Shown one piece after another: positions 27,923 to 54,653 of a stretch of 64,000 bases of DNA (the first letter of the stretch is position 1; each line of letters begins with the position of its first letter). The translations under genes were made by a program, and so were the position numbers. The DNA is taken from assembly GCA_033580375.1 (NCBI GenBank), contig GCA_033580375.1_4527.1. One strand, 5' to 3'. A model generated the notes under the pieces. The model ran no database searches. It was not told the DNA's origin and saw only the letters and a program-made list of their open reading frames with translations. This DNA comes from a phage.

Positions 27923-27952
27923 ATTATACTCCAACCATCCTTGGTTGTAAAC
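27923..27952 (-). promoter_or_regulatory. Early promoter (TTTACA-17-TATAAT) containing CAACCA/TGGTTG hairpin
   Basis: Minus strand tcaGTTTACAaccaaggatggttggagTATAATctt; 27-bp core identical to 28944-28970. Confidence 0.6.
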
Positions 27953-27956
27953 TGAT

Positions 27957-28916
27957 TTATGATTTTAATGCATTCATTGCGTTAAAAAGTTTAGAGTACT
28001 GCAACTGGAGATTGGTCACCACCTGTTGAGCATCACGAAGCTTAGCTTGTGCTTTATCAAGTTCAACGGATAGTTGGTCTACAGTGGCCTTGATTTGATT
28101 ATAATGGTAGTCTTCGGCAGGAAGAAGGTCATTAGAAACATTTAGTTTTACTGCAGACAGTTTGCACACATTTGGCAAACCTTTAAACATACCAGATTGT
28201 GCTGGAGAATATGCACCTAGAACCTCTGCATTACCGACTGGTGTTGCTGTAATATTGCCTTCAAACAATGCATTTTCCTTTTTAAGATTTTGATAGTATT
28301 CAGAGTCTTTGTGCCACCATGGTGCAGGAACCTTTTTACCAATAGATACACGAGCTTGGATAGCGATATGGCCCTTATTCTTGATAAGGTCGACAATATT
28401 AAGCTCACGAGAATAAATTGCTTTAATCTGGTGGATATTATCACCTAAAACTTCCAACGCTTGGTGGAATACACGAGCAACGTTATCATTCTTAGGTTTA
28501 TACGTAAGAGTGAACTCATTCTCACTGATAACCATGATTTCCAACTTATCGTAAGTATATTTCAAATGTTTCATGTTAATTGCTTGAGGACGAATACGAG
28601 AAGCAATGGCCATCAGATTGTTAAGGTTATTCCGGAACTGCTTAGCGAAATATTGTCCTTCACCGTCAATACAAAAATTACGAAGTTTCTGTTTGGCTAA
28701 TAAACGGCTGAACTCACCATTTTTAATGAACTCTTTAACGGGTGTGTTAGTAACGCATTCAAATTGAGTAAACTTACGAGAAGTAATCCCATAATACGAA
28801 CAGACTTCCTCAATCTCTTCAGGAGTCTTTACAGGCATACGGATAGGATTAGGTCCTGGAGTATATGCGTTCGAGGTAAATTCTTTGATAAGTTCTCTAC
28901 GTGTAATAAAAGACAT
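27957..28916 (-). CDS. Hypothetical protein with C-terminal coiled coil, 319 aa
   Basis: Intact ORF with own promoter. Confidence 0.65.
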   Translation of the reverse strand: MSFITRRELIKEFTSNAYTPGPNPIRMPVKTPEEIEEVCSYYGITSRKFTQFECVTNTPVKEFIKNGEFSRLLAKQKLRNFCIDGEGQYFAKQFRNNLNNLMAIASRIRPQAINMKHLKYTYDKLEIMVISENEFTLTYKPKNDNVARVFHQALEVLGDNIHQIKAIYSRELNIVDLIKNKGHIAIQARVSIGKKVPAPWWHKDSEYYQNLKKENALFEGNITATPVGNAEVLGAYSPAQSGMFKGLPNVCKLSAVKLNVSNDLLPAEDYHYNQIKATVDQLSVELDKAQAKLRDAQQVVTNLQLQYSKLFNAMNALKS

Positions 28917-28942
28917 TTTATATTCCTCATGTTGAAAAAATT

Positions 28943-28971
28943 ATTATACTCCAACCATCCTTGGTTGTACA
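28943..28971 (-). promoter_or_regulatory. Early promoter (TGTACA-17-TATAAT) with the same 27-bp hairpin core
   Basis: ttatactccaaccatccttggttgta repeated exactly. Confidence 0.55.
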
Positions 28972-29967
28972 TCATTCCTTAAGAAGTTTTACTACTTGAA
29001 TAAGATTAGCTCGTTCTGTTTTATTTTTACCGTTTAAGCCTGCTAATCGTGAGATTTCATCGTCAGTCTGTTGAATAGTTACATTAAGTTCGTTAATCAA
29101 AGCTTCAAAGTATTTGATTTGCTCAGCATGTTTTGATTCAAATTTCTGAACCGGAATAACGTCTTGGTTCAGTTCATCAATAAGGTCTTTAAGAGCATCT
29201 TCTTGGTTGATATCGTATTCAACTTCTTTTATTTCTTCAACGAGCTCGTCTTTATATCTAACGTCTTTTAGTCCTGGTGCTGGTCCTGAAATCTCTTCTT
29301 TAAGAGTACAAACATACCCAATACGGTATCCAATGCCGTCTCGCTTGATATCAACTTCGTCGATAAATCCACAATGTTTAAGTCCAGAGCCGATTATGTC
29401 AAAATATCCTTGACGTCGTCCTTCAAACGTTACACGAACTACTAAGACAGTTTTGCCACCAACCTTTTGAAGCTCACATTTATAAAAGTCTGTTGAACCT
29501 GAATAACGTGGATGAGTTTTAAAGTTCATCTGACGATCTAGGCCCATTTGTAAACGTGCTGTTACAGCCATAAAACGTGTTTGGTTCTCGTTAAGATGAG
29601 CAACGATCCATTTCAAAGGCATTTTACACTGTTCACGACCGAACAAGTCGGTATGTCCTAGATTACGCAGGATGTTGTTAGAGTTAATCATCGACAGAAC
29701 GTTAAGTTTATTCAGCGCGCTGAAGATTCCATCAGCCATTGATTTTCCATAACCTTTACACGCTTTAATAAGTGCTCGCGGCAGATTAGTATAGATTTCG
29801 GACGGCATATGAAAATCAAATTTACTAGTCAGTAATTGATGAACCTGGATAGCAATTTGCTCATAATTAAGTGCTCTGCGATCGTTATGGTCTTTAAACC
29901 ACACTTTAATCTGTGAAGCACATAAACCGTTAATTTCATGTTTTACCGCATCAGATGTAATGCTCAT
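28972..29967 (-). CDS. Hypothetical protein with C-terminal coiled coil, 331 aa
   Basis: Intact ORF. Confidence 0.65.
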   Translation of the reverse strand: MSITSDAVKHEINGLCASQIKVWFKDHNDRRALNYEQIAIQVHQLLTSKFDFHMPSEIYTNLPRALIKACKGYGKSMADGIFSALNKLNVLSMINSNNILRNLGHTDLFGREQCKMPLKWIVAHLNENQTRFMAVTARLQMGLDRQMNFKTHPRYSGSTDFYKCELQKVGGKTVLVVRVTFEGRRQGYFDIIGSGLKHCGFIDEVDIKRDGIGYRIGYVCTLKEEISGPAPGLKDVRYKDELVEEIKEVEYDINQEDALKDLIDELNQDVIPVQKFESKHAEQIKYFEALINELNVTIQQTDDEISRLAGLNGKNKTERANLIQVVKLLKE

Positions 29968-30029
29968 AACTATTTCCTCAGATTGAATTGGAACTCAAAA
30001 CCATTATAACCCGTCCTTGGGTAAAGCGT

Positions 30030-30557
30030 TTATGCGTGAACCGTCTTTAAACGTTCTTCAAATTTCCGAAGAGTACTAATACGTTCTGCTTTCTGTTTTG
30101 TGTAGTTTGCAATACGTTCTGAAGTGAGAGCGTATCGTTCGTTTACTGTTTCTTTCATGAAGTCAGGGATTTCACGAGAAGCTTTAATTTCATCAAACTT
30201 ATCGAGTACTGCCTGGTCTTCAGCAATTAAATTTTCGTACATCTCGATATCTTTCTTAATGAACTCGATATCTTCCTGGGTTACTTTGGATAAACGAAAT
30301 GCTTTATCCTTTTTGTACTGCTCGTTGGTTTCACGAGACCAGAATAATGTACGTTTTTTATTAGTGTTTTTGTAGACTTCCACAATTCCAACTAAATCGA
30401 TGATAACAATCCAATTCCAGCGAGATTTGAAAATCTGACCTCCGTCCACGGTAATCTCGTTACCATAAGCAACGTCATTAAAGAACTTGCTTTGTGCTTC
30501 AGATTTAAATTTACCGTCGTTATAATTTACCAGGTTGAAAATATCTTTAGCGTTCAT
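30030..30557 (-). CDS. Hypothetical protein, 175 aa
   Basis: Intact ORF. Confidence 0.6.
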   Translation of the reverse strand: MNAKDIFNLVNYNDGKFKSEAQSKFFNDVAYGNEITVDGGQIFKSRWNWIVIIDLVGIVEVYKNTNKKRTLFWSRETNEQYKKDKAFRLSKVTQEDIEFIKKDIEMYENLIAEDQAVLDKFDEIKASREIPDFMKETVNERYALTSERIANYTKQKAERISTLRKFEERLKTVHA

Positions 30558-30583
30558 GTTTTACCTCCAGTAGTTGATAGGTC

Positions 30584-30613
30584 TATAATAACATAACCAT
30601 AGACCTTGTAAAC
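30584..30613 (-). promoter_or_regulatory. Early promoter (GTTTACA-17-TATTAT) with AGGTCTAT/ATAGACCT inverted repeat
   Basis: Read directly. Confidence 0.5.
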
Positions 30614-30615
30614 AA

Positions 30616-30891
30616 CTAAAAGAAACTTTTTTCGGTATTTTTTCCACTGAACCAAACAGACTTCGGGATTTTTTGTAATTTTTCAGATTTAAGTTTCTCT
30701 TCCTGTTCTTTCTTATACGCATCCTTGTCGTACTGGAGCATCTCTATGGCATTCTTTTGCAAACGATCTAAGGTAATTAAGGCTTTAGTTTTTCCTTTCA
30801 AGGAAGAGTCCTGGCGAACCTCCTCGCTATATTGTTCTGTTGCACTAATCATACGATGGGCATATAATTCACGACTGGCTTGGATATTCAT
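30616..30891 (-). CDS. Hypothetical protein, 91 aa
   Basis: ORF. Confidence 0.5.
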   Translation of the reverse strand: MNIQASRELYAHRMISATEQYSEEVRQDSSLKGKTKALITLDRLQKNAIEMLQYDKDAYKKEQEEKLKSEKLQKIPKSVWFSGKNTEKSFF

Positions 30892-30898
30892 AATTTCC

Positions 30899-31891
30899 TC
30901 ATTTCAGTAAAGTTACTTCGGAGATTTCCTCCCAACCATCTTTATCAGTTGAAATAAAATCTGCTACATAAAGAGCCGTACGTAATGATACATTGCGAAG
31001 ACGAGATATGTTAGCCTTCATCCAGGACAATGCTTTGTACGTTTCTGCATCCGTCAGGCCACGTTTCTGCATCATGTCAGTAGATAATATTACATCTTCA
31101 ACTCGGACCATAATCTCTTCATTAGAGTGTACTCCAAGGTCCAAATACACTGAACGAGATACTAAAGCTTGAAGGTGTGGAGCAAGTTTCGAACCGCGTT
31201 CTAACTCTTTATCGATATCAACGTTTGTAATGAAAACGATAGTACCTTCAAACTCAAATTCTTTATCTATACCCTTATCATCAAGATAAGATGATGCAGT
31301 GCTCCAGCAAACTTTGCGTTTATCGCCAGTATCTAATGCTGCTTTAAGAAGGTTCAAGATGTCCATATCAGAGAATACGTCAACGTCATCGATTAAGAGA
31401 ACGCTGTCTGCATCACGGTTGAGCCAAAGTTGTTCGTAAAGGCCAATACCAGAGATTTTGCCATTAATGCTTTTGTATTTGATGAAACCATTATCATTAG
31501 CATTATTAAGCGCTTTATCCAGAGAATATGTCTTACCAATACCGGCTGCACCTGAAATAATGAGTGAACGAATTTTGCCATCGATAATGCCATTCGTCAT
31601 CATGTTCATTACTTTAAAGCGTTTGTTGATACGAGTTTTCATATCTTCAGCGTTTTCAACAACTGCAACTGGTGATGTCTCAACTCCTTCCATTACGATG
31701 TCTGATTTGAAGACCCATACTCCACGTTCAGAACCATCAATCATAACGAAAATTTTACCGTCACCTAAGTGGGAACATTCAGGATTAAGCTTTGCCGGGA
31801 ACCATGTCTTTGTGGCAACATAAGAACCAGAGATTTCGTTATTACGATAGATACCTTTTTTGATTTGAACGTTGAACATTTTATTCTCCAA
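30899..31891 (-). CDS. P-loop ATPase (AAA-like), 330 aa
   Basis: Walker A GAAGIGKT and Walker B LLIDDVD. Confidence 0.7.
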   Translation of the reverse strand: MENKMFNVQIKKGIYRNNEISGSYVATKTWFPAKLNPECSHLGDGKIFVMIDGSERGVWVFKSDIVMEGVETSPVAVVENAEDMKTRINKRFKVMNMMTNGIIDGKIRSLIISGAAGIGKTYSLDKALNNANDNGFIKYKSINGKISGIGLYEQLWLNRDADSVLLIDDVDVFSDMDILNLLKAALDTGDKRKVCWSTASSYLDDKGIDKEFEFEGTIVFITNVDIDKELERGSKLAPHLQALVSRSVYLDLGVHSNEEIMVRVEDVILSTDMMQKRGLTDAETYKALSWMKANISRLRNVSLRTALYVADFISTDKDGWEEISEVTLLK

Positions 31892-31918
31892 ATTTACTCA
31901 TTTCGTTTCGATAGGTCT

Positions 31919-31947
31919 ATAATAACATGTTTAAAGCAAAAGTAAAC
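31919..31947 (-). promoter_or_regulatory. Early promoter (GTTTAC-17-TATTAT)
   Basis: gataggtctataataacat...gtaaac pattern. Confidence 0.5.
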
Positions 31948-31949
31948 AA

Positions 31950-32168
31950 TTATTTGCGACGAGATTTTTTGGTAAGAGGTTGAAAGAACACTGCTTTACC
32001 AGCAGGAGTCAAAGTGACTCGTAATGCATTACCGATTCCTAAGGATGCTTTAACTAGACCTTTAGCTTTCAGTTCACCGAATGCTTGACGTTGGTCTGCA
32101 TCACGAGTGTTAACCATAAGACCTTTATCACCAGCTTCACGAATCATTTCTAACATTTTGGTTTTCAT
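31950..32168 (-). CDS. Hypothetical small protein, 72 aa (possible winged-helix)
   Basis: ORF. Confidence 0.5.
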   Translation of the reverse strand: MKTKMLEMIREAGDKGLMVNTRDADQRQAFGELKAKGLVKASLGIGNALRVTLTPAGKAVFFQPLTKKSRRK

Positions 32169-32198
32169 TTTGTTTTCTCCTCTTGTTTTGATAGGTCT

Positions 32199-32226
32199 AT
32201 AATAACATATCCTAAAAGCATGTACA
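32199..32226 (-). promoter_or_regulatory. Early promoter (TGTACA-16-TATTAT)
   Basis: gataggtctataataacat...tgtaca. Confidence 0.45.
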
Positions 32227-32256
32227 CTACTTTTTAAAAATATTTTGACCCCCTAA

Positions 32257-32272
32257 AGGGCCCGAAGGCCCT
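32257..32272 (-). terminator. GC hairpin AGGGCC-uucg-GGCCCU immediately after the NTase-like gene stop (weak U-run)
   Basis: Perfect 6-bp stem with UUCG loop; may be a stability or processing element rather than a terminator. Confidence 0.3.
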
Positions 32273-32274
32273 TA

Positions 32275-33734: not shown

Positions 33735-33743
33735 AATAATTCC

Positions 33744-34274: not shown

Positions 34275-34275
34275 A

Positions 34276-34455: not shown

Positions 34456-34562
34456 TTTACCATACTCGTTTCAATAAGATTCACTATGCCGTTTACCATG
34501 TTATAAGTAAACATCGGATAATTGTATTGTACTACAACATAAGCGATAAGCAAAAGTTTCAT
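34452..34562 (-). CDS. Hypothetical hydrophobic peptide, 36 aa (not in ORF track)
   Basis: MKLLLIAYVVVQYNYPMFTYNMVNGIVNLIETSMVK; GGAGAA SD, ATGA coupling to next ORF, directly downstream of promoter 34591-34620. Confidence 0.3.
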   Translation of the reverse strand: MKLLLIAYVVVQYNYPMFTYNMVNGIVNLIETSMVK

Positions 34563-34590
34563 TTTGTTCTCCATTCGTTTTAGTAGGACT

Positions 34591-34620
34591 ACTATAACAT
34601 AGTCCTACCAAGATGTAAAC
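34591..34620 (-). promoter_or_regulatory. Early promoter in stem-loop (GTTTAC-18-TATAGT inside TAGGACTA/TAGTCCTA inverted repeat)
   Basis: Member of repeated family (also 45692, 46984, 53910, 54239). Confidence 0.55.
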
Positions 34621-34856: not shown

Positions 34857-35016
34857 ACATTTGCAATTCAGTGTGCGTATCAGCCATCTTTTTCATTGCC
34901 TTATTGATATCGATATCACCGTCTTCACACCCATGGGCATTTTCCCAATCAGATACAGCATTAGCATACTCTTCAATCAAAAACATTAACTTAGAAATTT
35001 TTTCTTTACGTGACAT
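34837..35016 (-). CDS. Hypothetical protein, about 59 aa
   Basis: ATG 35014-35016 with GAGGAG SD. Confidence 0.45.
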   Translation of the reverse strand: MSRKEKISKLMFLIEEYANAVSDWENAHGCEDGDIDINKAMKKMADTHTELQMYVNEIM

Positions 35017-35043
35017 AACGTTCTCCTCTAGTAAGTAAGGTCT

Positions 35044-35072
35044 ACTATAACACAACCTGAGGAGAAGTAAAC
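35044..35072 (-). promoter_or_regulatory. Early promoter (GTTTAC-17-TATAGT)
   Basis: Read directly. Confidence 0.5.
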
Positions 35073-35081
35073 TGATAGATA

Positions 35082-35111: not shown

Positions 35112-35117
35112 AGTAAA

Positions 35118-35420: not shown

Positions 35421-35432
35421 ATAGGCCTCCTG

Positions 35433-38209: not shown

Positions 38210-38668
38210 CTAGATTTTAATAACTGCTTTAGAAGCTTTTCCTGGTAGTCGTTTACTGTTAATAATAGCCATTCTACATTGAAGAGTCTTCATTTTGAAT
38301 GCCGGATTTTCGCGACAAACTGTAAGGCCTAGCCAAAGATTTCCATCAGTTATTTCTAAACGGCCTGGGCGGTATTCGACACCTTCGACAAAATCTTCAT
38401 CAACATCTGGACGTGCCGGCATTGATAAAAATTCTGCAACTTCTTTAACGTGATTTTTTACTTTACGAAATAATTCAAAAACGTAATTCTCATCTATTTC
38501 TCTCTGGATGGCACGATCTAAGAGATGTTGAGAATACTTGATATGAAAGCCTGGTAGTCCAAGAGACTTTGCAGCATCTTTTATACCGGCATTTATTTTG
38601 CGGAACTCCGTTTCAAAGATTCGACGGAGTTTATTACGGCGGATAAAAACTTCCGAATTGATAGTCAT
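38210..38668 (-). CDS. regB: RegB site-specific endoribonuclease, 152 aa
   Basis: MTINSEVFIRRNKLRR... resembles T4 RegB as recalled; preceded by early promoter. Confidence 0.7.
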   Translation of the reverse strand: MTINSEVFIRRNKLRRIFETEFRKINAGIKDAAKSLGLPGFHIKYSQHLLDRAIQREIDENYVFELFRKVKNHVKEVAEFLSMPARPDVDEDFVEGVEYRPGRLEITDGNLWLGLTVCRENPAFKMKTLQCRMAIINSKRLPGKASKAVIKI

Positions 38669-38694
38669 TTTGATTTCTCCTCTAGTTGACAGGT

Positions 38695-38725
38695 CTATAG
38701 TAACACAACTAGAGGAGAAGTAAAC
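38695..38725 (-). promoter_or_regulatory. Early promoter (GTTTAC-17/18-TAnnnT)
   Basis: gacaggtctatagtaacac...gtaaac. Confidence 0.45.
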
Positions 38726-40638: not shown

Positions 40639-40818
40639 ATTATTTCTCTTAAGGTTGGGGGCCATTCCATGGCGCATGAATTGTCCATTTCTGTATTTAC
40701 CCATTACCGCACTTGGGCTCGACCTTATTACAGGTTGGCGGGAATCCCTCATAGAATCATGAGGTCCAGGTTGTTCCCATTTTATTTGAATGTAAATATT
40801 TTTGCCACGTGTTTACGA

Positions 40819-40846
40819 ATTATACCAAAAAAAAAACACGTGGCAA
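40819..40846 (-). promoter_or_regulatory. Sigma70-like promoter TTGCCA-16-TGgTATAAT embedded in a 12-bp palindrome (TTGCCACGTGTT / AACACGTGGCAA)
   Basis: Minus strand ttgccacgtgttttttttttggtataattcgtaaacacgtggcaa; read directly. Confidence 0.4.
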
Positions 40847-40915
40847 TTCACAGTATTCGGCGATTAAATGTTGATCAGCAAATTTAGATACTAAAGTCAA
40901 ATTAATATAAGTCAT
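40820..40915 (-). pseudogene. denV 5-prime remnant: 31-codon [31 protein letters not shown]... truncated after codon 28
   Basis: 22 of 28 residues identical to the N-terminus of the intact DenV at 42225-42638; upstream leader also resembles the denV leader; follows ipII as denV does in T4. Confidence 0.5.
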
Positions 40916-40940
40916 TTACCCATCCAAGTAATTATGAATA

Positions 40941-40969
40941 TACTATCACAATTCTAGGAGAAAGTAAAC
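40941..40969 (-). promoter_or_regulatory. Early promoter remnant (GTTTAC + weak -10) upstream of the denV fragment
   Basis: GTTTACtttctcctagaattgtgatagtat, parallel to the promoter at 42666-42695. Confidence 0.35.
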
Positions 40970-40971
40970 TG

Positions 40972-41274
40972 TTATTTACCTTTAATTACTTTAGCTGCTT
41001 CGATAGCCGCTTGCTGAAGGTCATCCATAGACATACCGAATTTAGAAGCAAAGTTATCAATTTTCTTTTCGACAGCATTCAAAGGCTTGGCCTGTTTACC
41101 TTCATTAGCGCCAGGAAGAGCGAGAATACGCTCTTTGTCAATATAAAGGCTTACAAGTTTCTTACGGTCTTTATCGGACAAATCATGAAATGAATGGGCC
41201 TTTTTATTTATAGCGGCTTCTAATTTACCTGCACTCACTCGAGCTTCAGTAATAAATTCTTGATATGTTTTCAT
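40972..41274 (-). CDS. ipII: Internal protein with capsid-targeting sequence (IPII-like), 100 aa
   Basis: N-terminal MKTYQEFITEA (T4 internal-protein CTS, cleaved by the prohead protease); overall resembles T4 IPII as recalled. Confidence 0.7.
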   Translation of the reverse strand: MKTYQEFITEARVSAGKLEAAINKKAHSFHDLSDKDRKKLVSLYIDKERILALPGANEGKQAKPLNAVEKKIDNFASKFGMSMDDLQQAAIEAAKVIKGK

Positions 41275-41315
41275 ATGTTTCCTTTAAATGTAAATAGGCC
41301 TATACTTAGACCTTA

Positions 41316-41894
41316 TTAATTACCACGGGCTGCATTAGCAACGGCGTAAGCGTACTGAACATTAGCGTCTTTAAACGTACCTTTAGATGTATCTATTTCT
41401 GCCTTAAAGCCACCTTTAGCCATAACATCGGCAAATTCTTTACGGAAAGCCATTGCATCAAGACCTTTCCATGATGATTTATGCTTGGCAAATTCAAGAC
41501 CAGCGTAGTTGACAGCTTTAGCTAATTTATTATCAATAACCCATTTACCGGCTTTAGGCACAAACTTCGGGCCTTTTTGTTTAGAGAACAGTTTTAAATT
41601 CCAGCGACGAAGGTCACTGTCGGCTTTAACAAAAGCTGCGTCTAAGTTACTAGCAACAACATCTTCAATATGAGCAAATTTAAGTCCGTCAACTTCAATA
41701 TTTAGATCGTTACGCCAGCGTAGTCCTTCCCAAGCGAAGGCTTTAAAATCAGAAGCCTTTGTAGCTAAGTACCGTTCAATAGGAGCTGTTTTAGGGTCAA
41801 AGCCGTTTCCGCCACGATAAGTCCACTCGTCCTTATTAATGCCTTGAGCTTTTCCTGCAAAGGCCTCGGCGATAAATTCTTTATACGTTTTCAT
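41316..41894 (-). CDS. ipIII: Internal protein with CTS (IPIII-like), 192 aa
   Basis: N-terminal MKTYKEFIAEA; size and position like T4 IPIII. Confidence 0.65.
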   Translation of the reverse strand: MKTYKEFIAEAFAGKAQGINKDEWTYRGGNGFDPKTAPIERYLATKASDFKAFAWEGLRWRNDLNIEVDGLKFAHIEDVVASNLDAAFVKADSDLRRWNLKLFSKQKGPKFVPKAGKWVIDNKLAKAVNYAGLEFAKHKSSWKGLDAMAFRKEFADVMAKGGFKAEIDTSKGTFKDANVQYAYAVANAARGN

Positions 41895-41957
41895 TTTTGT
41901 TTCCTTGTTTGTTTTGATAGAGTAATTATACCATATTAATACTTAAGCGTAAACAAT

Positions 41958-42224: not shown

Positions 42225-42638
42225 TTAGTAAATTGATTTACCATAGTATTTGTACCAAGTGGGACGTTGAGCAATTTTTTCATCTAAGCGTGCTTGACTT
42301 ATCGCAATGGACGCTTCGGACGGGACATAATTATTACGAAATTCTACAGGAATGTCGGAAATATCCTGGACTGTCGTGTCCTTGATTTTGAAACCACGTT
42401 TCAAACATTCAGCTATTAGCTCGATTTGACGTAAACGTAAAAATTCGAGTTTGTCGTAAAAGAATGTTACGTGGCCCGTGCCTAAAATAAATGTTGGAGA
42501 GATTTTAAAATCTTTTACACGTTTACCATTTTGAACATGTTTACGGACTGCACCGAATACACGAGGTAATTCACGATACTCAGCCATAAGATGTTGGTCG
42601 GTCAGTTCAGAAACAAGTGTTAAATTGATACGGGTCAT
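42225..42638 (-). CDS. denV: Endonuclease V (pyrimidine-dimer DNA glycosylase) DenV, 137 aa
   Basis: [35 protein letters not shown]... matches T4 endo V as recalled; ORF track start 42650 adds 4 codons. Confidence 0.92.
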
Positions 42639-42665
42639 AATTTCCTCCAAGTAGTTGATAGATGT

Positions 42666-42695
42666 ATAGTATCAAAACCCTTGGAGGAAGTAAAC
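42666..42695 (-). promoter_or_regulatory. Early promoter (GTTTAC-18-TACTAT) for denV
   Basis: Read directly. Confidence 0.45.
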
Positions 42696-45357: not shown

Positions 45358-45663
45358 TTATTTTCCTCGACATTCTTTAATGAAATTTTCTAGATTGGTA
45401 GATTCAATAGCTTTTTTACGAGCTTCTGCATGTTCTTCTTCAGACAATTTACATTTATAATTAACCCAGACGTTATGGTCAAAACTAGTCGTGGCGTATA
45501 ATAACAAAGCCCCGACAAATAATAAAAATGGTGATAAGAATACAAAACCAGGAACACCATCCATATCGTAAGCCTTTTGTAATACTGCAACAGAAAGAGC
45601 TGCATAAAAAGGTGATGCAAATATTGTTAAAAGACCAATTCGGTTGGTTTCTGTTAATTTCAT
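45358..45663 (-). CDS. Hypothetical membrane protein, 101 aa
   Basis: Two TM segments. Confidence 0.55.
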   Translation of the reverse strand: MKLTETNRIGLLTIFASPFYAALSVAVLQKAYDMDGVPGFVFLSPFLLFVGALLLYATTSFDHNVWVNYKCKLSEEEHAEARKKAIESTNLENFIKECRGK

Positions 45664-45691
45664 AATATTCTCCTCATGTTTTAATAGGACT

Positions 45692-45721
45692 ACTATAACA
45701 TAGTCCTATAATTGTGTAAAC
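45692..45721 (-). promoter_or_regulatory. Early promoter in stem-loop (TAGGACTA/TAGTCCTA family)
   Basis: Repeat family member. Confidence 0.55.
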
Positions 45722-46715: not shown

Positions 46716-46967
46716 TTAAATTTCGCGACATGCGATATTATATTCATCCCAGAGGTCATCGTGTGAAGCCTCTACCAATGGAACGATTGTACCGTTTATG
46801 TCTTCATTATAAGGACAAATTGTACAGTGCGCATCTTCGAATCGTATGCCTTTGTGTTCAGATTTTTTATAACGCATATCGAATATCTTTGCAAACTTTT
46901 CACGAGTAATGGTTTTACCAACCACTTTGGTTCCGATACTTTCGTAATAAATCATTGTGGACTCCAT
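46716..46967 (-). CDS. Hypothetical protein, 83 aa
   Basis: ORF. Confidence 0.5.
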   Translation of the reverse strand: MESTMIYYESIGTKVVGKTITREKFAKIFDMRYKKSEHKGIRFEDAHCTICPYNEDINGTIVPLVEASHDDLWDEYNIACREI

Positions 46968-46983
46968 TTAATTTGATAGGACT

Positions 46984-47013
46984 ACTATAACATAGCCCTA
47001 TCTTGTTGTAAAC
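46984..47013 (-). promoter_or_regulatory. Early promoter in stem-loop (same family)
   Basis: Repeat family member. Confidence 0.5.
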
Positions 47014-47215: not shown

Positions 47216-47224
47216 ATGGTTTCC

Positions 47225-47497: not shown

Positions 47498-47506
47498 AAT
47501 GATTCC

Positions 47507-47812
47507 TTAGCACAATGCAGAAGAGGAAACCCAAGCACCTTCAGTAATAACGTAACCATTACCTTCACGCTTAACATCGCCACCATTATTTTCAATTTCA
47601 TCTTTCATCCACTGGGATACAATTTCACCCTTAGGATAATAAGTACGACCGCTACCATAATCACCTACAGAAAACGATACGGCGTATTGGTCTGCGATCT
47701 TTGTTGCTTCTTCTTCGATACGTTCAGCTTGATTCAGAAGTTTATAAATTGCATCTGAAGCGGATTTGGCATCATTAAACTCTGGTACTTTAATTTCGAT
47801 AATCTTACTCAT
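47507..47812 (-). CDS. Small protein, 101 aa, C-terminus ...GAWVSSSALC (paralog 1 of 3)
   Basis: Shared C-terminal motif. Confidence 0.55.
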   Translation of the reverse strand: MSKIIEIKVPEFNDAKSASDAIYKLLNQAERIEEEATKIADQYAVSFSVGDYGSGRTYYPKGEIVSQWMKDEIENNGGDVKREGNGYVITEGAWVSSSALC

Positions 47813-48168
47813 TTTCTACATTCCTTAATAAAGTTTTCGATTGTTTCATTTTCACGTTTAGCTAGGAGTTCATTATAACTAATCATTTGAGAAGCGTAAA
47901 CCTTTTTATTTTTCTTGTTATGGTTTATAAAATCGTAGTAAAAATAGACTACAGTACAAAATGATGCGATGGATGCAAAGGCTTGGGTATACCGTAAGTC
48001 CTGCCATTGGTCTGTGAATCCACCAGTGTTCCCTATAAATCCTAACACAACGCCGTCAATAATAAATCCAACTAATCCAAAGGCAAATCCCATGCCAATA
48101 CTCATAATAAAAATTAGAATGTTCTCGCCAAGAGAAGGCCATACGGTTAAGAGTTGAGGCTTTTGCAT
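47809..48168 (-). CDS. Hypothetical membrane protein, 119 aa
   Basis: Hydrophobic segments. Confidence 0.55.
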   Translation of the reverse strand: MQKPQLLTVWPSLGENILIFIMSIGMGFAFGLVGFIIDGVVLGFIGNTGGFTDQWQDLRYTQAFASIASFCTVVYFYYDFINHNKKNKKVYASQMISYNELLAKRENETIENFIKECRK

Positions 48169-49113: not shown

Positions 49114-49162
49114 GTTAACTCCTTTATTATCCAAAAGGAGGACCGGAGTCCTCCGTATTATT

Positions 49163-49771
49163 TTATTTCAAAGAGTTAATATATTCTTGTACATCAGCAG
49201 AAGTGGTTTCGACACCAGCTGGAGCGCCATTGAACGTTTCAACACGAGTCAGAGTGTCTTCGATATCAACCTTAGTCAGTGCAGCGATTTCAATTACATC
49301 ATCAGCCGTAGAGATACCAAGGGCATTGGCTGCTCGAGTTTCACGAATGTATTCGAGTTTGATTGCCAGGTTCTGACGAGCATCGTCAAGTTCAACCACC
49401 TTACGAGCAATTTCAATTCGCATAGCGGCATACCCGTCAGCTTTTGTATTAAGTTGTTCGGCAGTTCGACGATACAGAAGACCAAGCTTAGCATGCATGG
49501 TAACATCTTGTCCTTCAGCCAGGAGCTTACGAATTTCACGTTCTTTAGAAGCGGCTTGCTTGTTCTTTTCATTAACAAGTTCTCGAATACGTTTTTCTTC
49601 GTTAATAGATTTAACAGAAGCAGTTTTTAGTTCTTTGATTTGGGTAATCAACTTATCTGCGGCTGCGTTATACTGTTCTTCGACAGTCAGATTTTTAGCC
49701 ATAGCAGTACCCAGTTTAGTGCGGATGAATTCAACAAGTTTCTTCAGTGTGTTCATATTATTACCTTTCAA
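49163..49771 (-). CDS. Hypothetical coiled-coil protein, 202 aa (composition reminiscent of PspA/IM30, unverified)
   Basis: Long heptad-rich helical sequence. Confidence 0.55.
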
Positions 49772-49797
49772 TTGGTGGTTTATTATCCAACGAGAGC

Positions 49798-49826
49798 ATT
49801 ATACTCTGCTCTCAAGAGTTTGTACA
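49798..49826 (-). promoter_or_regulatory. Early promoter in stem-loop (TGTACA-17-TATAAT inside GAGAGC/GCTCTC inverted repeat)
   Basis: Near-copy at 20028-20056. Confidence 0.5.
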
Positions 49827-50054
49827 TTATTTTTTAATCAAATTGACATAAAACTCTGCGTCTTCCGGGTGCATGCCTTCGCAGTATTCTTCAACCATGA
49901 ACTTCTTAACAGCTTCATAAGGACCACTCAGATTAAGCTCAGTTGTCCAAAACTTGGAATCTTGGGCTGAATCGATACGAACTTCAGGGTGACGGTTGCG
50001 AATAACTTCTTCGGTGTATTCATAATCAACGACATCAATACTAACTTTAGCCAT
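49827..50054 (-). CDS. Hypothetical protein, 75 aa
   Basis: ORF. Confidence 0.5.
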   Translation of the reverse strand: MAKVSIDVVDYEYTEEVIRNRHPEVRIDSAQDSKFWTTELNLSGPYEAVKKFMVEEYCEGMHPEDAEFYVNLIKK

Positions 50055-50083
50055 TTTGTTTCTCCTCTGTAGTTGATAAGTTT

Positions 50084-50111
50084 ATAGTATCACCATCATT
50101 GGTGCTTGTAC
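50084..50111 (-). promoter_or_regulatory. Early promoter (TGTACA + TAnnnT)
   Basis: Read directly. Confidence 0.4.
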
Positions 50112-50121
50112 ATCATTATTT

Positions 50122-50427
50122 TTAATTTTTCCAACTTAACAACTTGTAGTGTCCTTCATTCGTACGAGGTTTATCCCAAGAAATACTAATATATGATTCG
50201 CTGTCAATAGAAGTCGCCGGGTTTTTCTCTACAGTAAGACCTTCGCTTTCCAGCCATTCAATAGTGTTTGCGCATAAATCAGAAGAACACCTCATTGGAA
50301 ACTGACAAGATTTTTCACCTTTAGCTGCAGTGTTATACATCTTTTCTAAAATACGCTTTTGCACGTTTTTAAAAATAGTTTCAGCAGATTCTTCAGATTT
50401 TTTATTCAGTTCAGTATAAAGACTCAT
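50122..50427 (-). CDS. Hypothetical protein, about 101 aa
   Basis: ATG 50425-50427; ORF track start 50454 lies inside the promoter hairpin. Confidence 0.45.
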   Translation of the reverse strand: MSLYTELNKKSEESAETIFKNVQKRILEKMYNTAAKGEKSCQFPMRCSSDLCANTIEWLESEGLTVEKNPATSIDSESYISISWDKPRTNEGHYKLLSWKN

Positions 50428-50452
50428 AACATTCTTCTCGTTAATAGGGCTC

Positions 50453-50482
50453 ATAATATCTTAATCATGAGCCCATGTAAAC
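50453..50482 (-). promoter_or_regulatory. Early promoter in stem-loop (GTTTAC-18-TATTAT inside GGGCTCAT/ATGAGCCC inverted repeat)
   Basis: Read directly. Confidence 0.45.
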
Positions 50483-50484
50483 AA

Positions 50485-50760
50485 TTATTTCATATTATTG
50501 AAATAATCTTCCGCATCAAAATCGTTATCATGATAAACTTTGGTAGACGATTTGGCGTAGCCTTCAGCTGAGAACATATTAATCACAACTTTAATTGTAT
50601 ACCACTGCCCGTCTTCATTACCCATTACTGCGTAGGTTTCATACACTGGGTGTTCAGGTCCAATAACTTTAATATCATTCACCGTACGTCCGAAATCTTC
50701 TGGAACGCATTTCATAAAGAAGTTGAACAGTTCACCGTAATTATCCATTTCATTCTCCAA
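50485..50760 (-). CDS. Hypothetical protein, 91 aa
   Basis: ORF. Confidence 0.5.
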   Translation of the reverse strand: MENEMDNYGELFNFFMKCVPEDFGRTVNDIKVIGPEHPVYETYAVMGNEDGQWYTIKVVINMFSAEGYAKSSTKVYHDNDFDAEDYFNNMK

Positions 50761-50790
50761 GGTTTTTCTGTATCGGTAGTTGATAGTTGT

Positions 50791-50820
50791 ATAGTACCAC
50801 GGAAGAACAGGGATGTAAAC
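50791..50820 (-). promoter_or_regulatory. Early promoter (GTTTACA-18-TACTAT)
   Basis: Read directly. Confidence 0.45.
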
Positions 50821-50888
50821 AGTTTTGTGAAAAAAATTTTTAAAAAGTTTTGGGGAATTCTAGGACAGGGAGAGGAAAGGCCTAGATA

Positions 50889-50917
50889 CCAAAAAGCCCT
50901 ATCTAAATGATAGGGCT
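50889..50917 (-). terminator. Rho-independent terminator (AGCCCUAUC-auuua-GAUAGGGCU + U5)
   Basis: 9-bp stem plus T-run immediately after the stop of 50923-51486. Confidence 0.7.
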
Positions 50918-50922
50918 TAAAA

Positions 50923-51486: not shown

Positions 51487-51573
51487 TTAAAATCCTTGAA
51501 ATAATTTATCGGTTGGTTATTAATTATTTATTACTTTGGTATTATCAGTAACAGCATTCTCTGAGAGATTCAA

Positions 51574-51604
51574 ACTAAAAAGCCCCAACCTTTCGGAAGG
51601 GGCT
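51574..51604 (-). terminator. Rho-independent terminator; 24-bp hairpin identical to 35088-35111
   Basis: AGCCCC...GGGGCU hairpin plus U-run on minus strand, downstream of the tRNA/stable-RNA region. Confidence 0.65.
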
Positions 51605-51900
51605 AAGCCTTGCGGCGACCTTGTCGGGGTTCCACCTGCTAAGGCAAGTGTTTGTACGAAACGCCGGGATTCGAACCCGGTTATTAAGCAGTTGACGCTA
51701 CTCAATATTTTTAAAAGGCCATATCTCGACCATATCCGAACGTTCCGTCAAAAACGCTACTCGGCTTACGGCAAAGATATTTCCTCGAATCGATAATTCT
51801 GTGCGCCGTTTCTGCTGTGATGTAAGGGGATATTAACGAATCATAAAGATTTATTAAGACCAGTCCTTACTCAGGGAACATCAGTCCGACGACTTGCCGG
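51605..51900 (-). other. ORF-free region with a perfect tRNA-type T-arm (CCGGG-UUCGAAU-CCCGG); possible small stable RNA(s) or degenerate tRNA
   Basis: T-arm consensus read on minus strand at about 51665-51681; I could not complete a canonical cloverleaf by hand. Confidence 0.3.
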
Positions 51901-51917
51901 TAGCGACCCGGCTTCTC

Positions 51918-52262
51918 TTATTTTGGCATATCATCAATTTGCTCTCTACGCCGACGCCATAGATTAATCGCTTCATAGGCACATTCTGCGTTTGGTATAT
52001 GACGGCAATAATATAATGATTCACGTTTCTGAAACCGATGTTGCAATGGGATTTCGTTTAAAAGGTCTTTACGATCAAAGTATTCAAAACTAGTTAACCC
52101 TGAACGGTTTTTAATGAACTTCCAATGACCGAATTCATTTTGAACATAGATGTAATCAGCGTGTTGATAAAGTGAATTAATCAATCGGTCTGAAATAACT
52201 GTATCATGTTCGTTAAAATAAAACGTTAAATCATGAACTACTAAATAGACATTACCTTTCAT
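51918..52262 (-). CDS. Hypothetical protein, about 114 aa, embedded in the tRNA region
   Basis: ATG 52260-52262 with GAGGAAA SD; ORF track start 52310 would overlap tRNA-Arg. Confidence 0.5.
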   Translation of the reverse strand: MKGNVYLVVHDLTFYFNEHDTVISDRLINSLYQHADYIYVQNEFGHWKFIKNRSGLTSFEYFDRKDLLNEIPLQHRFQKRESLYYCRHIPNAECAYEAINLWRRRREQIDDMPK

Positions 52263-52280
52263 ATTTTCCTCACTTATAAT

Positions 52281-52357
<77 letters not shown>

Positions 52358-52363
52358 AATATA

Positions 52364-52437
52364 TGACCCAGACCAGATTCGAACTGGTAACCTTTCCCTT
52401 ATGAGGGGACTGCTACTAACCGTTGAGCTACAGGGCC
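52364..52437 (-). tRNA. tRNA with CAU anticodon (Met, or Ile if lysidine-modified), 74 nt, no encoded CCA
   Basis: Hand-folded: acceptor GGCCCUG/CUGGGUC (one U-U mismatch), anticodon loop CUCAUAA, T-arm ACCAG-UUCGAAU-CUGGU. Confidence 0.7.
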
Positions 52438-52516
52438 TAAATAACTTTCTATTATGAAAGGCACTTTAGAGCACCTTTGGTAATAGAGGGTATGAGTTAA
52501 TAATAACACATAATTC

Positions 52517-53032
52517 TTAAAGCAAATCAATCATTTTAACAGTCGGCAAAACGATTTCTTCTTCAATATAAGCAAATTCAACACATTCAACTACACGCAA
52601 GAAATCATAATCATAATATTCAGAAGCATAGCCAAGAATATCAATGAGACCTTCTGATACTAAATATCCATTCTCACGGAACAGGTCAAATACACGTGAT
52701 TCATCTTCTTCAGATTTATTACCGAGGTCGACTTCAATATCAAAGACCTTTTTAATGAATTCTGGATAAAGCTGGTCTGAGAACAATCCTTCAACCAAGT
52801 ATTCATAGATTAAAAGCGAGCAATCACTGAATGGTGTATTACCACAGTAACGTTCAGCTTTAGTGCTAGAATGACGACTCTTAAATTTCTTCAAAAGATA
52901 TTTAAACTGTTGGAGCTCATGCTCTTCCACTTCAAACAATGTTTTGGTTTTATAGTTGTCACCATCATTTTCATAGGTAGTGACATCAATTACATAACCC
53001 TTAGGAATTGTACTGCCTAAACAAATATTCAT
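52517..53032 (-). CDS. Hypothetical protein, 171 aa
   Basis: Intact ORF. Confidence 0.6.
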   Translation of the reverse strand: MNICLGSTIPKGYVIDVTTYENDGDNYKTKTLFEVEEHELQQFKYLLKKFKSRHSSTKAERYCGNTPFSDCSLLIYEYLVEGLFSDQLYPEFIKKVFDIEVDLGNKSEEDESRVFDLFRENGYLVSEGLIDILGYASEYYDYDFLRVVECVEFAYIEEEIVLPTVKMIDLL

Positions 53033-53036
53033 TTAC

Positions 53037-53327
53037 TCACCGTACCATATTAATGTAATTATATTCAATGCAACGTAATTTCAAAGGATTCTTGAAAATA
53101 TCATATTCAAGAGGACCTTTTTCTGTTTCAATAAAGAAATCAAAGTTAACTGTATTAAATTTATCATCTTCACAGAGTAATTTAACTTGCGAAGATGAAC
53201 GGTCGATATAAACCTTTTCAACCTCAAAGTTAGTCAGAATACCGTAGTCATCAACTAGTGCTTTAGCTGCACGTTGGTCGCTTTCGTATCCGTTCTCAAT
53301 AGATGACACTTTAGCATAAAGAATCAT
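53037..53327 (-). CDS. Hypothetical protein, 96 aa
   Basis: ORF, ATGA overlap with upstream gene. Confidence 0.5.
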   Translation of the reverse strand: MILYAKVSSIENGYESDQRAAKALVDDYGILTNFEVEKVYIDRSSSQVKLLCEDDKFNTVNFDFFIETEKGPLEYDIFKNPLKLRCIEYNYINMVR

Positions 53328-53686
53328 GAATGTTCCACCACTTCAAAGCTATGAGCATCAACAATATGATACCAGTCAAAATTTTCTTCTGCGTTTTTAT
53401 AAATTTCGCGAAGAGCTTCAACAGTTTTTCCTGTAGCAACAAGATCATCAATACCACCAAGAGGATAACAGTCATAACCAGCAAACAGAAGGAAATTAAT
53501 AGTTTCTGTAGGTTCTGGATGCAGAACACCGTTATCATCTACCACTTCAAAGAAAGTGTAAGAAGGAGTACAAGTTTTAATCCAAGCCCATGCTTGAGAT
53601 GCCGAATCAAATGGTCTACGTATCAAACGACAATCAGGGTCTTTAGAAGGATTTGCTTCAAAATCTGCATATACATGATATTTCAT
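53324..53686 (-). CDS. Hypothetical protein, 120 aa
   Basis: ORF. Confidence 0.55.
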   Translation of the reverse strand: MKYHVYADFEANPSKDPDCRLIRRPFDSASQAWAWIKTCTPSYTFFEVVDDNGVLHPEPTETINFLLFAGYDCYPLGGIDDLVATGKTVEALREIYKNAEENFDWYHIVDAHSFEVVEHS

Positions 53687-53893
53687 TTACTCACCTTTTG
53701 CAATTTTATCCATAACAATAGCGATTAAACCGATTAGAAATGCTACTACCAATGAGATAGAATTTTCGGTTGTTGTCAGTAGTCCGCAAATGAATCCTAC
53801 AAACATCGAAAAACTAAAAGCCATTGAAGCAATTACTACAGCAACATTACGAATCAGTTCAGCGCGTTTCATTTTATTTCTCCATTTACTCAT
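53687..53893 (-). CDS. Hypothetical membrane protein, 68 aa
   Basis: Two hydrophobic helices. Confidence 0.5.
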   Translation of the reverse strand: MSKWRNKMKRAELIRNVAVVIASMAFSFSMFVGFICGLLTTTENSISLVVAFLIGLIAIVMDKIAKGE

Positions 53894-53909
53894 TTTGTTT
53901 TGATAGGAC

Positions 53910-53938
53910 TACTATAACATATCCATATAGGCTTGTAT
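53910..53938 (-). promoter_or_regulatory. Early promoter in stem-loop (TAGGACTA family)
   Basis: Repeat family member. Confidence 0.5.
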
Positions 53939-53942
53939 ACCT

Positions 53943-54206
53943 TTATTTCAAATATATTGCGTATTTTTTATAGCCACCAGGCTCATGTCGAAGACCTTTA
54001 TCATTCGCAAAACGTTGAATGTTATTGAACTGATTTTCGTCAAGTTCGGATGTGTCAAATATGAAAAAGTTTCGTTTGTTACCAAGCGTGATATGCGGAG
54101 TTAAGTCAATGTTATACAAATTAAGAATATCAGCAATAACCTGATTGACCGCTTTGTTAATTTTCACACCAGACGATTCTGAGATGAATTCGTTGAAAGT
54201 TTTCAT
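53943..54206 (-). CDS. CTS-bearing internal protein, about 87 aa
   Basis: MKTFNEFISES at second ATG. Confidence 0.55.
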   Translation of the reverse strand: MKTFNEFISESSGVKINKAVNQVIADILNLYNIDLTPHITLGNKRNFFIFDTSELDENQFNNIQRFANDKGLRHEPGGYKKYAIYLK

Positions 54207-54238
54207 TTTAGGTTCCATTTGGTTGTTTTGTTAGGACT

Positions 54239-54268
54239 ACTATAACATAGTCCTACAAAGATGTAAAC
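54239..54268 (-). promoter_or_regulatory. Early promoter in stem-loop (TAGGACTA/TAGTCCTA family)
   Basis: Repeat family member. Confidence 0.55.
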
Positions 54269-54579
54269 TATTTTATGCCTTTAGATGAAATAGTGTTCTG
54301 GCGTTTAACCCCAGTTTGTGAAAAATCATGGTTATCAATTTGGTCAACTCGCATAACACCAAACGCAGATTTAATTTTGGCCTTTGAACCTTTTTTGATA
54401 CTAATTACCATATAAGTGTCATTTTTCTTATATTCGTAATTTGATACTTCAACGCCTTGATTAGAAATTGACTTAATAATAGCATTAGCGTATTCATCAT
54501 CTAACGGGCCGTTAGTGTTAATAACAAAATTTTTATCCGCTTTAGTAGCTTCCGCGATGAATTCTTGATAGGTTTTCAT
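54268..54579 (-). CDS. CTS-bearing internal protein (IPI position), 103 aa
   Basis: N-terminal MKTYQEFIAEA; adjacent to 57B as ipI is in T4. Confidence 0.6.
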   Translation of the reverse strand: MKTYQEFIAEATKADKNFVINTNGPLDDEYANAIIKSISNQGVEVSNYEYKKNDTYMVISIKKGSKAKIKSAFGVMRVDQIDNHDFSQTGVKRQNTISSKGIK

Positions 54580-54613
54580 TTTATTTCCTTGAGGTTGTTT
54601 ATTTGATAGGATG

Positions 54614-54653
54614 ATAGTAACACACCGTCATCCTTATGTAAACTGTTTTGTGA
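54614..54653 (-). promoter_or_regulatory. Early promoter with GGATGA/TCATCC inverted repeat
   Basis: gtaaac at 54648-54653 plus TAnnnT. Confidence 0.45.

Follow-up and report, generated by a model that had tools for sequence, protein, structure and literature searches.

Early-promoter cassettes with stem-loops in the hyperplastic regions of an RB69-like phage and their predicted pairing in read-through RNA

Repeated cassettes that combine an early promoter with a stem-loop (early promoter stem-loop or PeSL cassettes) are known in RB49/phi1 (Arbiol et al., 2010, PMC2839356) and in PST/T4 and nt-1/KVP40 (Comeau et al., 2014, PMC4122927). A second group of hairpins, in the T4 genes e, soc, 49 and I-TevI, sequesters the translation start and has the proximal promoter inside it (reviewed by Uzan & Miller, 2010, PMC3014915). 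Early promoters were also predicted in RB69 (Nolan et al., 2006, PMC1524935), where the sites are treated as promoters only, and hairpins, palindromes and inverted repeats go unmentioned. Here, we describe a family of such cassettes in a 64 000-nucleotide stretch of phage DNA (GenBank assembly GCA_033580375.1, contig GCA_033580375.1_4527.1; the whole stretch is referred to as the window). Megablast and taxonomy identify the window as an RB69-like T-even phage of the genus Mosigvirus (Straboviridae, Tevenvirinae), with PHB12, mogra, phiE142 and p000v as the top matches at 95–97% identity. All genes are on the minus strand over ∼18–58 kb, with the order (in RB69 names) gene 55, nrdD, nrdC.x, tk, regB, internal-protein genes, denV, e, tRNAs and genes 1, 3, 2 and 4; this stretch is the classical hyperplastic early region of T4-type genomes.

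The cassettes of the window are the same unit as the published PeSLs, namely an AT-rich region with an upstream stop codon, sigma-70-type boxes, a stem-loop between the −35 box and the −10 box or over the latter, a Shine–Dalgarno (SD) sequence and a start codon. They are likewise repeated many-fold in hyperplastic early regions beside genes that vary between close relatives, indels end in them and crossovers fall inside them; the initial annotation had called them PeSL-like, and this is borne out by their make-up, by where the stem-loop sits in them, by their location and by their link with variable genes. The host group is analysed in neither PeSL paper, and our literature search found no description of PeSLs in the RB69 group. 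The finding is therefore real but largely known, an RB69-group version of the published cassettes. Three differences stand out: PeSL stems are GGGG...CCCC, whereas those found here are A/T-rich and variable (TAGGACTA, GAGAGC, GGGCTCAT and others); terminator features are absent from the stems; and a subset pairs with the SD, while Arbiol et al. (2010, PMC2839356) make no mention of translation or ribosomes. Our analysis suggests a refinement, in which the stems are RNA-level elements specific to read-through transcripts and a conserved minority gates translation.

A scan with the generic sigma-70 hexamers TTGACA/TATAAT was no better than shuffles (69 vs 68.4 and 63 vs 57.3) and was replaced by a profile hidden Markov model made from the clear cassettes; the signal thus lies in the extended T4-type profile (UP, GTTTACA, TGn, −10 and CCTATCAA). 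At a threshold of E < 0.01 the profile gives ∼26 matches, all on the minus strand and all within 19.3–54.7 kb, with none on the plus strand (best plus-strand E = 1.4) and none in the flanking core-gene blocks at 0–19 or 55–64 kb. Applied to the corresponding 42 kb of T4, the profile gives 12 sites. We curated 27 sites of the window as cassettes. Some 22 of them are clearly located between genes and have an SD and an ATG 24–42 nt past the −10 box; another three are within or overlap coding sequence (26980, 25575 and 20781), and the two weak ones are 40968 and 20056, the latter having a poor −35. The family was initially taken to start at 27.9 kb and instead starts at ∼20.0 kb.

A cassette spans 60–100 nt and comprises an A/T-rich UP region, GTTTACA, a 16–17-nt spacer, TGn with the −10 box, a CCTATCAA start region, a GGAG-type SD and the ATG. 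Through alignment, 25 of the 27 sites coincide with RB69 early promoters predicted by Nolan et al. (PMC1524935, Additional file 3), and the C residues at −3 to −1 of those promoters agree with the CCTAT motif seen here. From the anatomy, the strand-restricted profile matches and these coincidences, all in keeping with the initial annotation of T4-type early promoters, we infer that the sites are sigma-70-type early promoters of the RB69-like phage, active and starting at the predicted position. The start-region motif, CCTATCAA(A/C)(A/T)AC or CTATCAACTAC, covers positions −3 to +9 and is conserved in most cassettes (19–55 kb); given this shared motif, the early mRNA 5′ ends would be nearly identical across cassettes. 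The GGAG-type SDs are also the RegB cleavage motif. A literature search for T4 start-site or 3′-end sequencing papers found none. The expectation that the cassettes flank genes absent from T4 holds for only about one-third of the downstream genes (about eight), and most cassettes precede genes shared with T4.

Several cassettes are near-copies of one another. The palindromic 24-nt core of subfamily A, TAGGACTATGTTATAGTAGTCCTA, occurs exactly at 34584–34607, 45685–45708 and 54232–54255 (chance expectation 0); a fourth copy (46977–47000) has one mismatch, a G that preserves a G.U pair, and a fifth (53904–53927) has three mismatches and a decayed left arm. Subfamily B consists of an exact 27-mer, TACAACCAAGGATGGTTGGAGTATAAT, at 27923–27949 and 28943–28969, one base from where it was first placed. 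Subfamily C is a 42-nt match between 20009–20050 and 49779–49820, in which the stems GAGAGA/TCTCTC and GAGAGC/GCTCTC differ by a compensatory change (A:T to C:G). The repeats listed in the initial annotation, including the exact 27-bp copies and the GAGAG...CTCTC pair at 20028 and 49798, are thus all present, and none is expected by chance.

Each cassette was folded from the −35 box to the ATG and z-scores were calculated against dinucleotide shuffles. In class I, the 5′ arm lies in the spacer, the −10 box in the loop and the 3′ arm at about −6 to +6 (sites 54642, 54267, 50481, 49826, 47012, 45720, 34619, 30612, 20355 and 20056), with folding free energies (ΔG) of −11 to −18 kcal/mol and z-scores down to −5.3. 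Class II is a small hairpin wholly within the spacer (27951, 28971 and 50112). In class III, an arm directly after the −35 box pairs with the downstream gene's SD (42694 before denV, 38724 before regB, 35071 and 21483). Five cassettes show none of these arrangements. The initial description of −10 elements inside inverted repeats therefore applies to class I and fails for subfamily B, where the hairpin is wholly in the spacer.

The pairing is specific to each cassette. The duplex between a cassette's own arms reaches −9 kcal/mol or lower in 14 of the 27, as against 19% of swapped pairs, and three more have spacer hairpins. The mean for own spacer against own downstream part is −9.6 kcal/mol compared with −6.4 kcal/mol for swapped combinations, a value that none of 20 000 permutations equalled (p < 5e-5), and the difference persists after subfamily duplicates are removed. 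A pattern scan of IMG/VR, covering 120 T4-like phage stretches (1.0 Mb), yielded 187 unique cassettes with an own pairing of −8.59 vs −5.97 ± 0.11 swapped; 51 belong to class I, 27 to class III and three to other arrangements, and 106 show no or weak pairing. Some of these cassettes are composite, with a class I stem stacked under an SD helix. Among those with CCTAT at −3 to +2, the cassette's own variable upstream triplet has its exact complement in the spacer in 38 of 95, compared with 5.9 ± 2.2 (maximum 15 in 5000 trials) when triplets are swapped. Covariation was diluted when a single fixed pairing register was imposed on class I, as the stem slides relative to the −10 box, and register-free tests were used instead. 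T4 orthologs have different stems at the same promoters: GATGAGGTA/TACCTCATC in T4 against AGGATGA/TCATCCT in the window at the 57B/ipI promoter, and ATAGGCTcAT/ATGAGCCTAT against GGGCTCAT/ATGAGCCC at the e.7 promoter. By these several independent tests, the complementarity within cassettes is selected. An Rfam scan returned two tRNAs only and no family for any cassette hairpin. The 27 cassettes are as follows (Pe numbers are those of the RB69 predictions).

54577–54643, minus strand (site 54642), before an RB69p156-like internal-protein gene: −35 at 54637–54642, −10 at 54614–54619, ATG at 54579; class I AGGATGA/TCATCCT, −10 inside the loop; Pe:77187; T4 ortholog GATGAGGTA/TACCTCATC.
54204–54268, minus strand (site 54267), before an internal-protein gene replaced relative to RB69 ipI: subfamily A, class I, core 54232–54255, z −2.9; Pe:76812.
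53870–53940, minus strand, before tRNA.4: subfamily A with decayed left arm (three mismatches), no stable hairpin; Pe:76459.
50746–50820, minus strand (promoter 50819), before e.8: weak long-range spacer–SD pairing, SD unpaired probability 0.02 in read-through RNA vs 0.66 in its own transcript; terminator-like hairpin upstream at 50894–50918; Pe:73274.
50425–50482, minus strand (site 50481), before an RB69ORF146c-like gene: class I GGGCTCATGAT/ATTATGAGCCC, ΔG −17.8, z −5.3, compensatory change against T4 e.7; Pe:72936.
50052–50113, minus strand (site 50112), before frd.3: class II CACCA-atga-TGGTG wholly in the spacer; several indels at 50048–50170; Pe:72567.
49754–49827, minus strand (site 49826), before e.6: subfamily C, class I GAGAGC/GCTCTC; Pe:72069.
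47810–47901, minus strand, before an RB69ORF139c-like gene: no hairpin; deletion endpoint at 47901; Pe:70143.
46953–47013, minus strand (site 47012), before an RB69ORF135c-like gene: subfamily A, class I with one G.U pair; Pe:69254.
45661–45721, minus strand (site 45720), before an RB69ORF133c-like gene: subfamily A, class I, z −3.6, chimeric relative to the JK45 tandem promoters; Pe:67959.
42636–42695, minus strand (site 42694), denV: class III, spacer arm TTCCTCCAAG with SD-containing CTTGGAGGAA, 10 bp, ΔG −19.2, z −4.8; Pe:64934.
41892–41954, minus strand (promoter 41953), ipIII: no hairpin, z +0.4; Pe:64193.
40913–40969, minus strand (site 40968), remnant before a 31-codon open reading frame (ORF): homologous to the T4 denV promoter and denV 5′ end.
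38666–38725, minus strand (site 38724), regB: class III TTCTCCTCTAGTTG/CAACTAGAGGAGAA, 14 bp, SD sequestered, ΔG −21.6, z −5.1; Pe:61376.
35014–35072, minus strand (site 35071), mobD.2a: class III TTCTCCTC with GAGGAGAA, weak z of −0.9; Pe:58138.
34560–34620, minus strand (site 34619), before a 36-codon mobD.2-like ORF: subfamily A, class I, 13-bp stem, ΔG −18.3, z −4.1; Pe:57689.
32166–32227, minus strand (promoter 32226), before an RB69ORF102c-like gene: weak hairpin; terminator-like hairpin just upstream at 32247–32262; Pe:55296.
31877–31947, minus strand, nrdC.10: no hairpin; replacement endpoint at 31938; Pe:55018.
30555–30613, minus strand (site 30612), nrdC.8: class I AGGTCTATGG/(CT)ATAGACCT, with an outer helix between the UP region and the SD in longer RNA; SD unpaired probability 0.04 vs 0.33 with shuffled upstream sequence; Pe:53683.
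28914–28972, minus strand (site 28971), nrdC.5: subfamily B, class II CAACCA-agga-TGGTTG in the spacer; Pe:52042.
27892–27952, minus strand (site 27951), nrdC.3: subfamily B, class II hairpin in the spacer; Pe:51019.
26945–26981, minus strand (site 26980), doubtful: overlaps the nrdC.3/nrdC.2 junction with the −10 overlapping the nrdC.2 start codon; not among the RB69 predictions.
25540–25576, minus strand (site 25575), inside a 49.1-like ORF: no hairpin; Pe:48639.
21425–21484, minus strand (site 21483), 55.6: class III TCCTCGATAG/CTATAGAGGA, 9/10 paired, covers the SD, z −2.0; SD unpaired probability 0.19 in read-through RNA vs 0.82 in its own transcript; Pe:43945.
20746–20782, minus strand (site 20781), inside 55.5 and upstream of 55.4: perfect consensus, imperfect hairpin around the −10; Pe:43242.
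20293–20356, minus strand (site 20355), before an RB69ORF075c-like gene: class I, 12-bp CGATAGGAAGAC/(A)TCTTCCTATCG, ΔG −18.2, z −3.5; Pe:42816.
19988–20057, minus strand (site 20056), 55.2: subfamily C, class I GAGAGA/TCTCTC, poor −35; Pe:42515.

An additional hairpin of 8 bp, ATAGGTCT/AGACCTAT, lies upstream of gene 55 at 19297–19324, with TATAAT in its 17-nt loop and no recognizable −35. Nearby, p000v has a 184-bp insertion at 19355, where RB69 (RB69ORF072c here) also departs from the window.

The mismatches within the stems distinguish between RNA and DNA as the level at which pairing is maintained. Stems were located by scoring G.T and A.C alike, and interior transition mismatches were then counted. 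All stems together contain 32 G.T and 10 A.C mismatches (p = 9e-4; swapped controls 13.4 and 10.6), and class I alone contains 28 and 5 (p = 7e-5), with the proviso that the counts include related sequences that are not fully independent and that the p-values are optimistic. An excess of G.T over A.C is not expected of duplex DNA or of the antisense strand and thus points to selection on the stems as sense-strand RNA. The inverted repeats might instead act in DNA, either as the site of a dimeric phage protein (for example an early shut-off factor or a recombinase) or as a cruciform or hairpin that is cut by a nuclease to start recombination. Such a role would suit the clustering of breakpoints at cassettes described below, and room for it is left by the unknown mechanism of T4 early-promoter shut-off (PMC3014915, PMC2988021) and by the speculation of Arbiol et al. 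that a DNA-binding protein targets the stem-loop. However, the stem sequences vary between cassettes while pairing is kept, which argues against a sequence-specific protein, and the class I asymmetry is not what duplex DNA would produce. Stems of 6–14 bp with loops of 6–33 nt are moreover poor cruciform formers, and we regard an action in DNA as highly improbable.

The complementarity could also have arisen without any function, as a by-product of templated quasi-palindrome correction or of gene conversion among cassettes. The near-identical subfamilies A, B and C do show copying or conversion within the genome, and some copies have decayed (53904–53927); yet the strand-specific G.T bias is not expected from DNA-templated correction, and the denV, regB and nrdC.8 orthologs, whose proteins are down to 56–65% identical, keep an SD-covering helix built from unrelated stem sequences and with the arm in either of two positions. 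Absence of function is therefore the least probable of the readings considered here.

The position of the arms suggests which RNA would contain the hairpins. In classes I and III, the 5′ arm is upstream of the predicted transcription start (∼7 nt past the −10 box), and the cassette's own mRNA would thus lack the hairpin, which could form only in read-through RNA begun at a promoter further upstream. For denV and regB, the predicted consequence is a switch in SD accessibility: the SD has an unpaired probability of 0.00 in read-through RNA compared with 0.49 (denV) and 0.69 (regB) in the gene's own transcript, and none of 30 controls with shuffled upstream sequence reached the real value for either gene. 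An SD contained in a helix whose 5′ strand lies upstream of the proximal-promoter start is found for denV, regB, 35071, 21483 and the outer helix of 30612. No SD-covering helix occurs in the class I and class II cassettes, apart from that of nrdC.8 through its outer helix only; the 3′ arm of class I stops at about +1 to +6, and the SD is left free in the TAGGACTA family and the other class I cassettes. Among the 187 IMG/VR cassettes, 16% have an SD unpaired probability below 0.1 in read-through RNA, whereas the figure is 0% when the upstream part is shuffled (10 controls averaged for each cassette). Strong and specific SD occlusion is accordingly a feature of about 15–16% of cassettes.

The SD-covering helices are retained between orthologs while their sequences turn over. 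The regB orthologs, with proteins down to 56% identical, all keep the helix that buries the SD and have unrelated inner stems (CTAGTTG/CAACTAG, CTTGACTG/CAGTTAAG in T4, CTTTATG/CATAAAG and TGTAAG/CTTACA), including a composite of GGGCCAT/ATGGCCC with TTTCCTT/AAGGAGA. Alignment of the regB cassettes by MAFFT followed by RNAalifold recovered the outer 7-bp SD helix only, with the divergent inner stems out of register, and these stems were therefore read directly. For denV, we examined ∼30 distinct upstream regions, and those with a T4-type early promoter almost always hide the SD, in one of two geometries. The 5′ arm lies either in the spacer (TTCCTCCAAG, TCTCCTGTAG, CTCCGTTTG and TCTCCTGTG) or in the −10 box together with the discriminator (ATGATGTCTTCC...GGAGGACATCAT), and either way it is upstream of the start. 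With the second geometry, the helix of several T4-like phages covers both the SD and the AUG (ATGATGTCTTCC...GGAGGACATCATG), with the same predicted outcome. The nrdC.8 orthologs also keep the SD helix and show the same turnover of stem sequence.

Class III follows the same logic as the hairpins of T4 e, soc, 49 and I-TevI, in which the 5′ strand of the SD helix is upstream of the proximal-promoter start, so that the long RNA is closed and the short one open. Those T4 genes have late promoters (TATAAATA) and are translated late only, whereas the promoters here are early sigma-70 promoters (GTTTACA...TATAAT) and translation would be restricted to the early transcript. The likeness is limited to a minority of cassettes and does not extend to the TAGGACTA family.

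The published interpretation of PeSLs is that the stem-loop terminates or attenuates polymerase arriving from the upstream cassette, leaving each gene to be transcribed mainly from its own promoter. In its favour, Arbiol et al. (2010, PMC2839356) inserted a single RB49 stem-loop between lacZ and a strong promoter and reported a fall in expression comparable to that caused by rrnB T1, and the G.T bias would suit any RNA-level role. The cassette stems resemble intrinsic terminators in being intergenic, G+C-containing RNA hairpins on the sense strand, but they lack a U-tract and their loops hold the whole −10 box or more. No T-run follows any class I, II or III stem, the next sequence being the conserved CCTATCAAAAC or CTATCAACTAC. 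A terminator scan of the region called none of the cassette hairpins, while it did call four other minus-strand sites (37303–37285, 49154–49137, 50918–50894 and 32262–32247). The class III loops of 17–33 nt and the inclusion of the SD also fit translational control better. We consider termination or attenuation an unlikely account of the cassette stems in general, although attenuation of a kind that needs no U-tract may act at them; the name 'terminator' used in the literature probably describes them only in part. The four terminator-like hairpins do carry T-runs, and two are just upstream of promoters 50819 and 32226; they agree with the PST/T4 type of PeSL, in which the stem-loop is upstream of the promoter.

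The window was aligned to seven relatives (mogra, phiE142, p000v, JK45, TH58, phiEC1 and RB69). Within 19–55 kb there are 56 unique breakpoints, 12 of them within 10 nt of a promoter core (2.4 expected, a fivefold enrichment) and 18 within 30 nt (4.1 expected). At least one end falls in a cassette in 27 of 45 events, and cassettes make up 6.8% of the region; tested at the level of junctions against all junctions, the association has p = 0.004. At 45720, where JK45 has an extra promoter and a 201-nt ORF, the promoter of the window is chimeric, with the UP region and −35 box of the JK45 upstream promoter and the spacer, hairpin and −10 box of its downstream promoter, the crossover lying in GT(T/G)TACA of the −35 box. 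The internal-protein genes at 53.9–54.6 kb are replaced between conserved cassettes. The comparison of cassettes with indel breakpoints called for in the initial annotation is thus positive as regards the 12 breakpoints near cores and the JK45 crossover, but the enrichment is confounded with a preference of breaks for intergenic DNA; the data fit the PeSL shuffling model and do not tell it apart from a plain tolerance of breaks between genes.

Insertions of 0.7–1.0 kb are found in relatives at 24279–24282, 23003–23064 and 57643–57674, and the window is without all three. JK45 and TH58 have an I-TevII-like element in nrdD, TH58 has one further insertion and p000v has a homing endonuclease between genes 2 and 4. 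In GenBank, phiE142 is filed as Carettavirus and JK45 as Tequatrovirus, and both are ∼96% identical to the Mosigvirus window over 25 kb. A T4-like ipIII–ipII module, with an ipIII 92% identical to that of T4, occupies 40820–41894 and is followed by a remnant of a T4-type denV promoter and the first ∼30 denV codons (87% to T4). Module and remnant are located downstream of the phage's own denV and are absent from RB69. The segment resembles an internal-protein module gained by horizontal transfer, bounded by promoter 41953 on one side and by 40738–40798 on the other.

We favour, with moderate confidence, the following explanation. The cassettes are headed by early promoters, and in about half of them a spacer segment complementary to the cassette's own downstream part would form a hairpin with the −10 box in its loop. 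With the 5′ arm upstream of the predicted start, this hairpin would exist only in transcripts that enter the cassette from a promoter upstream of it. The 3′ arm is the SD itself in a minority (denV, regB, 55.6, mobD.2a and, through an outer helix, nrdC.8); read-through RNA could then not be translated for the gene concerned, whose expression would depend solely on its own early promoter. Most of the hairpins, those of the TAGGACTA family among them, have a 3′ arm that stops at about +1 to +6 and leaves the SD free, and there the hairpin most likely marks a cistron boundary on read-through RNA, by pausing or attenuation or as a barrier in processing or stability. Short repeated homologies bracketing single genes would also, probably as a by-product, be favoured places for the crossovers by which genes are gained, lost or replaced.

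Several points weigh against this explanation. Starts, read-through and RNA folding are predictions, and the mismatch counts draw partly on related sequences; we infer the in vivo folding and every functional consequence of the hairpins from pairing and its conservation. For class I, the type singled out in the initial annotation, the analysis yielded no demonstrable consequence of the hairpin. Five to ten of the 27 folded sites have no hairpin at all, so that promoter function does not depend on one. SD occlusion as a general feature of the cassettes was rejected: mean accessibility is 0.40 vs 0.44 with shuffled upstream sequence in the window and 0.42 vs 0.43 for the 187 cassettes, and translational gating thus explains a minority only. 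As regards shuffling, a breakpoint occurs in 14 of 23 promoter junctions and in 6 of 15 other intergenic gaps of at least 25 nt, which is not a significant difference; a search for long direct repeats flanking indels found only 7–31 nt at clean indels; and several of the indel events are homing-endonuclease insertions unrelated to the cassettes.

More tentatively, and with less than even confidence, we propose that the hairpins are RNA devices general to T-even early promoters that signal the origin of a transcript, closing the SD in the ∼15% subset (denV, regB, nrdC.8 and others) and marking cistron boundaries in class I; such a reading is not described in the PeSL papers or T4 reviews that we examined. 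The present analysis extends the PeSL concept to the RB69 group and adds quantitative support new to PeSL descriptions, in the form of stem covariation, an RNA-type mismatch bias on the sense strand and generality across T4-like phages including T4. An SD hidden only in read-through RNA would make each small early gene of the subset an autonomous expression unit. If true, this would help to explain how single genes are swapped in the hyperplastic regions of T-even phages without disturbing their neighbours, and it would offer phage engineers a natural insulating promoter cassette.

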